This document shows positions 2,698 through 3,263 of a stretch of DNA of 18,553 nucleotides, one piece after another. A program made the position numbers and the translations under genes. The stretch is taken from IMG/VR virus record IMGVR_UViG_2541047776_000006, one strand, 5' to 3'. Numbering within the stretch: the stretch's first letter is position 1; every line of letters begins with the position of its first letter. The DNA comes from a virus (Duplodnaviria > Heunggongvirae > Uroviricota > Caudoviricetes). The notes beneath the pieces are model-generated. The model worked only from the letters and a program-made list of their open reading frames with translations. It did not search any database and was not told the origin of the DNA.

Positions 2698-3263
2698 AAG
2701 GGAAATTTGCTGGCAGTTTTGCTTAACCGTTATCATTTTTCTGCTATCCGCTATGAAGCTGGTGGATGATCACTGATAACTCGTATGGGAATCCCCATAT
2801 CGGCATCATGCCCATGCCATAACAAAAACCCCATATTCGTGGGTTTTCTGTGTTGTGGCTATTCTGCCGTTGCCGTGCTGGTGGATATTTCCGGTATGTG
2901 GCTCACCATATCGGCATCAGGCCCACCAGCGTGAAGCGTTTTTCATTTTTCGCGGGTATAAAAAATCGATGGGGCTGGCAGTCCGGAAGACGTCAGGGTA
3001 CAGAGATTTGACCCGCCCCTCCCTGTGCATGGGCACAATAAGTAACCGAAGGCGGAATTCCGCCCTCGGTGCTCACATATGAGAAACGATATTTCTTACA
3101 CCGATACCCTTTATTTGGGTATCGCGAGTAAGCCCCAAAATCTGGGTGTTACTCTTACTACCCAAACTACGGGTAGTTTCCGTAGTTTCATAGTCGAGTT
3201 GCAGATCTGCAACTCGCCACCAGTTGCTAAGTGCATTTTTGCACTTTCGGTAATATCAACCAG

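Follow-up and report, generated by a model that had tools for sequence, protein, structure and literature searches.

In an 18,553-nt window of the Escherichia coli chromosome (the whole stretch of DNA analysed here, 100% identical to NZ_CP031215.1) a 9,785-bp island sits between thiM and rcnR, and we propose, with a probability of roughly 0.7, that the noncoding block at its left end is the packaging end of a PICI-type satellite, with an 83-bp copy of an SfV/SfI/SfII/ST64B/phiP27-type cos site as its core. The block comprises 700 bp of noncoding DNA bounded by the last late gene, whose stop is at 3264, and by attL, and in comparison with related islands it is a mosaic. A first reading of the sequence, the original prediction, had pointed to a dense set of hairpins and repeats in 2760-3260 and had offered a cos or pac site, a regulatory array for protein binding or a structured RNA as explanations, with known phage cos sites and covariation among related islands as checks. 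The cos proposal is supported by homology, but none of the five structures listed in its favour is the cos site; they belong to flanking modules instead, namely Chi-bearing repeats, a terminator-like hairpin and a hairpin array.

A probable phage-type cos site in the noncoding block

When positions 2500-3560 were compared with phage genomes by distant BLAST, only 2941-3023 found matches, and these fall in the SfV/SfI/ST64B/phiP27-type cos region, which answers the proposed comparison with phage cos sites in the affirmative. Read on the minus strand, the segment is 92-95% identical to the cos regions of 720R4, SKA5, SfII, ST64B, SfI, SfV and SfIV and 82% identical to that of phiP27, and in every annotated phage the matching site lies in the HNH-terS intergenic region or at the extreme ends of the linear record. 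Its terS-proximal side (2941-2970) contains CGCGGGTAT and A/T tracts, which are kept from phiP27 to SfV. This is followed by the cohesive-end decamer GGGGCTGGCA (2971-2980), which aligns with the SfI cohesive end, and by a 43-bp HNH-proximal side (2981-3023) containing an inverted partner of the decamer, GACCCGCCCC, at 3010-3019. Two phage records map onto 2971-2980, that of phiP27, which annotates a 10-nt 'cos-site' read as GGGGCGGGCG, and that of SfI, which terminates in GGGGCGGGCA; the SfI cohesive end has been mapped physically as 5'-TGCCCGCCCC-3' (PMC3636060).

The island site and those of SfV, SfI, SfII, SfIV, ST64B and phiP27 are alike over the 83 bp (82-95% identity), in the position of the decamer, in the inverted repeat GGGGCGGG...CCCGCCCC and in the terS-side motif CGCGGGT(A/G)T with its A/T tracts. 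Between phiP27 and the SfV-type phages DNA similarity is limited to this 76-83-bp block, the whole of which is held by the island; as diverged helpers share DNA similarity there only, the 83 bp appear to be the whole functional unit. Homology supports the identification of a cos site, for which a role in packaging is predicted. The phage sites differ from that of the island in being flanked by HNH and terS and in having G at position 6 of the decamer, where the island has T (T2976) relative to all helpers examined. In IMG/VR the T variant occurs in satellites only and in no phage context, and efficient cutting by a standard helper is for this reason unproven.

The ends of HK97 have a loosely similar layout, with a G-run and TCAAATCT upstream and ACCCG and a T-tract downstream, and the site bound by its small terminase is the 15 bp from +15 to +29 (PMC11331095). 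Placement of HK97 TerS in the SfV TerS family was rejected, as HK97 gp1 has no detectable relation to SfV TerS, and the analogy between the binding sites is consequently positional only.

The cos site as an exchangeable cassette

The 83-bp cos was counted in 1630 of the 5426 complete E. coli genomes, in most cases alone, and these lone copies would fit prophage cos sites. A second copy lies in the window's own genome (NZ_CP031215.1), which is circumstantial evidence that the island can be mobilised by a helper. Among satellites the 83-bp block is 92-100% identical across many islands at different att sites, with its flanks exchanged. It stands at a fixed distance of 185 nt from a conserved group of hairpins (module B, 3099-3218), is found in 19 distinct left-flank contexts and is paired with three late modules, comprising either a DUF1441 protein and a capsid fusion, a Nu1-C-terminal-like small terminase, or the full HNH/TerS/TerL set of capsid-forming PICIs (cf-PICIs). 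The shortest island version (L014/L070) starts ~30 bp from the decamer on the terS side. Given the constant spacing, the many left flanks, the three late modules and this minimal version, the cos site behaves as an exchangeable 83-bp cassette, and its combination with three late modules suggests that satellites may change helper range by cassette exchange.

Several further observations were made on related elements. The decamer is polymorphic at positions 3 and 6 in satellites (GGGGCGGGCA, GGGGCTGGCA, GGTGCTGGCA and GGAGCGGGCA). Five islands (L015, L020, L031, L044 and L061) hold two units of a cos-like site and module B, 434 bp apart, recalling cos1/cos2 of EcCICFT073; the second cos-like site, between the paired module B copies, is diverged (GAGGCGGGCACTCC...CTACCCCTCC), and in L015 an ISApl1 is inserted between the module B copies. 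Seven others (L008, L026, L033, L043, L063, L078 and L083) are helper-embedded PICIs inside the large-terminase (gpA) gene of lambdoid prophages and have the same late genes, module B and the terminator hairpin without a cos of their own. In one IMG/VR element (L092) the integrase and primase are 99% identical to those of the window and a Nu1-like small terminase replaces the DUF1441 gene and the capsid pseudogene, and the comparison therefore indicates wholesale exchange of late modules between otherwise identical satellites.

Boundaries and gene content of the island

That the block lies at the left end of an island was confirmed by the att core ATACGGGTATTTCT (attL, 2551-2564), a 14-bp direct repeat with its second copy at 12336-12349, which was delimited by alignment with an empty site (L006) and by the end of core-genome homology at 2564. 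The insertion point is inside the thiM TPP riboswitch, whose halves (2504-2638 and 12286-12385, minus strand) reach 33.4 and 20.1 bits, short of the gathering score of 54.3; the empty site of other strains has an intact annotated TPP riboswitch, and thiM/thiD have probably lost their native leader and promoter in this lysogen. Within the island a 70-nt arm repeat (2628-2697, plus strand), with two copies of TGACCACAC and CGAACAA motifs, recurs at 12181-12250 with 86% identity. The two arms are likely to be integrase/excisionase arm-type sites of attP. Islands with other integrases have two copies of TAACTACACC and three of CGAACAA at the analogous place.

The gene set and its order are those of Gram-negative PICIs (PMC6092414). 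There is a tyrosine integrase (recombinase) at 10928-12148, a Phage_AlpA domain at 9749-9973 and a D5_N/Pox_D5 primase at 6392-8224, and directly downstream of the primase stop at least six copies of the iteron GGTGAACAGT (6181-6389), which are the expected PICI replication origin. A DUF6387 protein and an Icd-like protein are also encoded. Judged by the criteria of Fillol-Salom 2018, the island has the integrase and att duplication of a Gram-negative PICI and a length of 9,785 bp where ~10-15 kb is expected, alpA and primase followed by an iteron origin, and a packaging function in the form of a terS homologue and/or cos, with no lysis or tail genes. Its sole structural gene is a pseudogene, and as TerL, portal and HNH are absent too it is not a cf-PICI. 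Nor does it have an Rpp-type system, neither of the two late proteins described below matching RppC.

The pseudogene in question (4286-4949) is a fusion of a ClpP-like prohead protease and a major capsid protein, frameshifted and truncated here and intact in L007 and L011. Between the origin and the late genes lies a low-GC (31-35%) cargo segment (5000-6400). It encodes, on the opposite strand, a HEPN-domain protein of 237 aa that may serve as a defence or toxin cargo.

The late operon ends with a gene for a 93-aa basic helical protein (phrog_1561; 3264-3545, minus strand) that always adjoins the block, and next to it is a gene for a DUF1441 small-terminase-like protein (phrog_141; 3548-4033, minus strand) in the position held by Rpp (RppA) in EcCICFT073. 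The DUF1441 protein matches PHROG 141 'terminase small subunit' at 9e-58. It was rejected as a homologue of Rpp, Nu1 or helper TerS, showing no similarity to RppC, lambda Nu1, helper TerS or the Nu1-like protein of sister islands, and sequence comparison rejected the 93-aa protein in the same roles; as a positive control, EcCICFT073 RppA matched 6HLK (RppC) at 5e-31. Structure models of the two proteins had a pLDDT of 63 (93-aa) and 46 (DUF1441), too low for either to be relied on, and found no match below E = 2 in a Foldseek search of the PDB, and a scan of GTDB genomes for the 93-aa protein gave no match.

Hairpins and repeats in excess of chance

The structures listed in the original prediction are real, with one adjusted by a single base. 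Direct reading and a repeat search confirmed both copies of the 20-mer CCATATCGGCATCA[T/G]GCCCA (2795-2814 and 2906-2925), and the stem AAAACCC/GGGTTTT is present at 2825-2847. The near-perfect palindrome CCGAAGGCGGAATTCCGCCCTCGG is at 3046-3069, its single A.C mismatch on the plus strand being a G.U pair on the minus strand, and the inverted repeat GATACCC-N7-GGGTATC at 3103-3123 lengthens to an 8-bp stem at 3102-3124. The perfect 22-bp palindrome exists too, at 3195-3216 and not, as had been given, at 3194-3215.

Their density is well above random expectation. Counting perfect stems of at least 7 bp with loops of at most 10 nt, 2760-3260 contains 8 distinct hairpins, where 1000 dinucleotide shuffles average 0.27 (sd 0.52) and never exceed 4. 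Its longest direct repeat with at most one mismatch measures 20 nt, and 200 shuffles gave none longer than 15. Folding of 3030-3270 is exceptional on either strand (z = -9.2), and 2720-2945 gives z = -3.4 / -4.1. Single hairpins of the block reach z = -4 to -5.5, with the exception of the weak hairpin at 2825-2847 (z = -2 to -3), which lies inside an optional second repeat unit, between two 32-nt repeat copies.

The absence of a convincing ORF was likewise upheld. That the block might encode small proteins, from 2785-2934 and 3079-3300 on the plus strand, has a practically negligible probability and we reject it on account of frameshifts in relatives and neutral substitutions, even though nearly every relative has the longer frame open and a single deletion of 9 nt leaves it in frame. 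This 73-aa ORF (3079-3300) has ~7 synonymous against 17 non-synonymous changes, the neutral pattern, as well as a frameshift in L023, no start codon in some lineages and C-termini that are wholly different. The 49-aa ORF (2785-2934) is broken by a 1-nt indel frameshift in relatives or is absent from them, and the sequence itself is a chain of palindromes.

Chi sites and 32-nt repeats beside the cos site

The two 20-mers are parts of 32-nt direct repeats (2783-2814 and 2894-2925, plus strand) that are 84% identical and spaced by 111 bp. There are two copies in the window, L007 and L009, one in L011, which shares its att site with the window and has an intact capsid gene, and none in L014, and the copy number does not follow the type of TerS-like gene. 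The repeats are diverged copies of a palindromic element, TATGGGGATCCCCATATCG, found 3' of the lambda-like cosN in EcCICFT073, L010 and L012, and could be what is left of a lambda-type cos cassette that has been replaced.

Each repeat unit is preceded by an exact Chi octamer GCTGGTGG (2758 and 2877, plus strand), and a reverse Chi (2923, minus strand) follows the second copy. The window has 10 Chi sites, 9 of them within the island, against 0.57 in shuffles. With 9 sites in 9.8 kb (2565-12349) the island is about 4-fold above the E. coli average, and related IMG/VR satellites reach ~1 Chi per kb. The sites at 2758 and 2877 are oriented toward RecBCD entry at the terS-side cos end; as exact octamers facing a RecBCD-accessible end they have the form of Chi hotspots, activity being predicted only. 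Most relatives also have a reverse Chi facing the other end, ~245 bp rightward of the decamer; at that place the window has CCACCAGT.

Terminally clustered and oriented Chi sites have been described in lambdoid phages without Rec modules (PMC12315714). The island resembles them in high Chi density, in the closeness of Chi to cos ends and in the RecBCD-facing orientation, and we suggest that the Chi-bearing repeats probably restrain RecBCD at the free cos end. It differs from the lambdoid case in being a satellite and not a phage, in a weak overall orientation bias (5 against 4) and in having its right-hand proximal Chi mutated.

A terminator-like hairpin and a conserved hairpin array

A terminator scan picked out a GC-rich hairpin of 11-12 bp (3045-3070, minus strand), placed between the late operon and cos, with the interrupted tail UUACUUAUUGU, a dG of -21.9 kcal/mol and z = -4.8. 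The terminator-like sequence would end the late operon, and the hairpin is retained, in bulged form, in helper-embedded islands that have no cos. To its right lies module B (3099-3218), a group of four hairpins at 3102-3124, 3126-3154, 3164-3188 and 3195-3216, the last with a central GATC, and just after the 93-aa gene a further hairpin, AAGTGCA-TTTT-TGCACTT (3229-3246).

Conservation of these structures in related islands, which the original prediction had made a test, was found: module B is 94-100% identical across islands differing in integrase, late modules and cos types, and is common to classical, helper-embedded and capsid-forming PICIs. Covariation among relatives was a partial success. 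In an alignment of 10 sequences 92% of cells pair, against 33-46% with slid partners, and seven pairs are changed on both sides, against 1-2 in the slid controls. Most of these fall in two hairpins, with three pairs in 3229-3246 and two compensatory pairs in 3102-3124; in the former the variants GTGC/GCAC, ACGC/GCGT, ACCC/GGGT and GGCG/CGCC differ in sequence and keep the pairing. For three of the four hairpins of module B covariation is uninformative because the module is nearly invariant. The asymmetry between G.U and A.C does not pick a strand, with ~5 sites favouring minus and 3 plus.

Searches with Rfam 15 (gathering and E-value thresholds) and ARAGORN found no RNA family or tRNA in the block, the nearest Rfam match being the split thiM TPP riboswitch. 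No promoter-like site was detected in module B by scanning and no homologue in phage genomes by BLAST. A module-B 21-mer had no match in GTDB genomes, the occurrences used here having been collected from IMG/VR, and a literature search with its sequence strings matched no paper. The array most probably forms a structured 3' end for the late transcript, as it stands after the last gene and before the terminator and is present in cos-less helper-embedded islands, the assignment of this role being weak. Its duplication together with cos-like sites leaves room for a function connected with packaging.

Proposed packaging mechanism and alternative explanations

We infer that the island would excise and replicate, after which the terminase proteins of a helper (P27-family TerS, TerL and HNH) would recognise the copied cos on concatemers. 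The helper terminase would bind the terS-proximal 30 bp and the cut at GGGGCTGGCA (2971-2980) would leave 10-nt cohesive ends, packaging then proceeding to the left as the window is numbered, passing att and coming round to 2981. Since 4 x 9.8 kb is 39.1 kb and helper genomes are 37-41 kb, a head of normal size could be filled by multimers; packaging of multimers into full-size heads has been reported for EcCICFT073 (PMC6092414). Redirection of capsid size is unlikely as the capsid gene is a pseudogene. A point against the cos explanation is that the DUF1441 TerS-like protein is unrelated to helper TerS.

The array at 3045-3246 might instead be a functional structured RNA in itself, expressed from the minus strand as an sRNA derived from a 3'UTR, an element for RNA processing or stability, or several terminators in series serving a late operon under antitermination, and not merely the end of an operon; we regard this as possible and hold it tentatively. 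The folding score of -9.2, the pairing that persists in hairpins 3229-3246 and 3102-3124 where both sides have changed, and the G.U pairs that the terminator-like hairpin and several variants form on the minus strand only would all agree with such an RNA. So would the presence of the array in helper-embedded islands, which have no cos of their own, so that the array needs no cos in cis. However, palindromes fold equally on both strands and about as many variants have G.U on the plus strand, the core of the array is too invariant for covariation, and neither an Rfam match nor a promoter-like site was found. It is unlikely that module B and/or the 32-nt repeats are cis DNA sites for the satellite's packaging proteins (the 93-aa, DUF1441 or cf-PICI terminase), acting as a 'cosB-like' or termination signal that biases packaging to satellites. 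The unit duplicated in two-cos islands does consist of a cos-like site and module B, 434 bp apart, the module is common to all three kinds of PICI, the 93-aa protein is basic and always adjacent, and the cosB of EcCICFT073 is unlike that of its helper and is read by Rpp-TerS (PMC6739421). Yet EcCICFT073 is without module B, helper-embedded islands hold it without cos, the repeats vary from 0 to 2 copies independently of the type of TerS-like gene, and the low-confidence models of the 93-aa and DUF1441 proteins revealed no DNA-binding fold. The narrower proposal that module B (3099-3218) is a satellite-specific cis signal, DNA or RNA, read by a factor of the satellite, for instance the adjacent 93-aa protein or a cf-PICI terminase, seems to us distinctly improbable. 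If true, such a signal would tag the genomes of satellites for packaging or termination, and unrelated satellites could use each other's machinery.

Very little probability attaches to the cos copy being a non-functional relic of prophage recombination in a block that is as a whole only decaying sequence on the border of a degraded island. The island may be decaying, as its capsid gene is a pseudogene, and the frameshift in this capsid/protease gene, the substitution in cosN relative to all helpers examined and the visible mosaicism of the block fit such a history. Against this, the 83 bp stay 92-100% identical across many islands with different att sites and exchanged flanks, their boundaries are those of the block conserved among diverged helpers, and int, alpA, the primase and the TerS-like and 93-aa genes are intact. 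With the block read as a packaging end, the element is a further example of a known strategy, a satellite with its helper's cos as in EcCICFT073, SaPIbov5 and P4, and not a new kind of element. The reading would assign a likely helper class, the SfV/SfI/ST64B/phiP27-type, HNH-dependent cos phages, to satellites that are widespread in E. coli, where ~30% of complete genomes hold this cos type. To our knowledge, previous descriptions of these satellites were limited to a lambda-type cos combined with Rpp and to full capsid-forming modules. Two extras of the island are its putatively Chi-guarded cos ends and the highly conserved hairpin module.

Comparison with other cos satellites

Satellites that carry the cos of their helper include SaPIbov5-type cos SaPIs of Staphylococcus aureus and P4 (cited in 10.1101/2022.09.08.507074). 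The island resembles both in copying a helper cos for packaging by the helper terminase, and the helpers of SaPIbov5 are HNH-dependent cos phages, as in the case of the island. The host phylum and the sequences are unrelated, and SaPIbov5 redirects capsid size with a capsid homologue whereas that of the island is a pseudogene.

In CFT073 we located EcCICFT073 with a 144-aa gene, which is rppA; after it come a homologue of the 93-aa gene, with 79% nt identity to that of the window, a 550-bp noncoding block and att at phoQ. The layout of late genes, Rpp-position gene, 93-aa gene, cos block and att is shared with the island (PMC6092414, PMC6739421), and both elements have a helper-imitating cos, adjacent Chi and short hairpins whose loops are A/T. 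Set beside the real lambda end, the EcCICFT073 block shows a lambda-like cosN-like sequence, GGGGCGTTAATGTC ... TTTTTTCCGGTTAAA, followed by Chi, and its non-helper cosB is read by Rpp-TerS (PMC6739421); sequence searches of the window found neither a lambda-like cosN nor Rpp. In contrast, the window has a full SfV/SfI-type cos, its terS-proximal side included, that with respect to the late genes is oriented the other way round, and EcCICFT073 has neither this cos nor module B. Two to three copies of the motif GAAAATATCA(A/G)CGGGTTAG(G/C) lie between the lambda-like cosN and the 93-aa gene in EcCICFT073 (L089, 28656-29209), L009, L010 and L014. These repeats are candidate R-like elements of a PICI cosB, and the window has one copy, at 3249-3268, overlapping the stop of the 93-aa gene.
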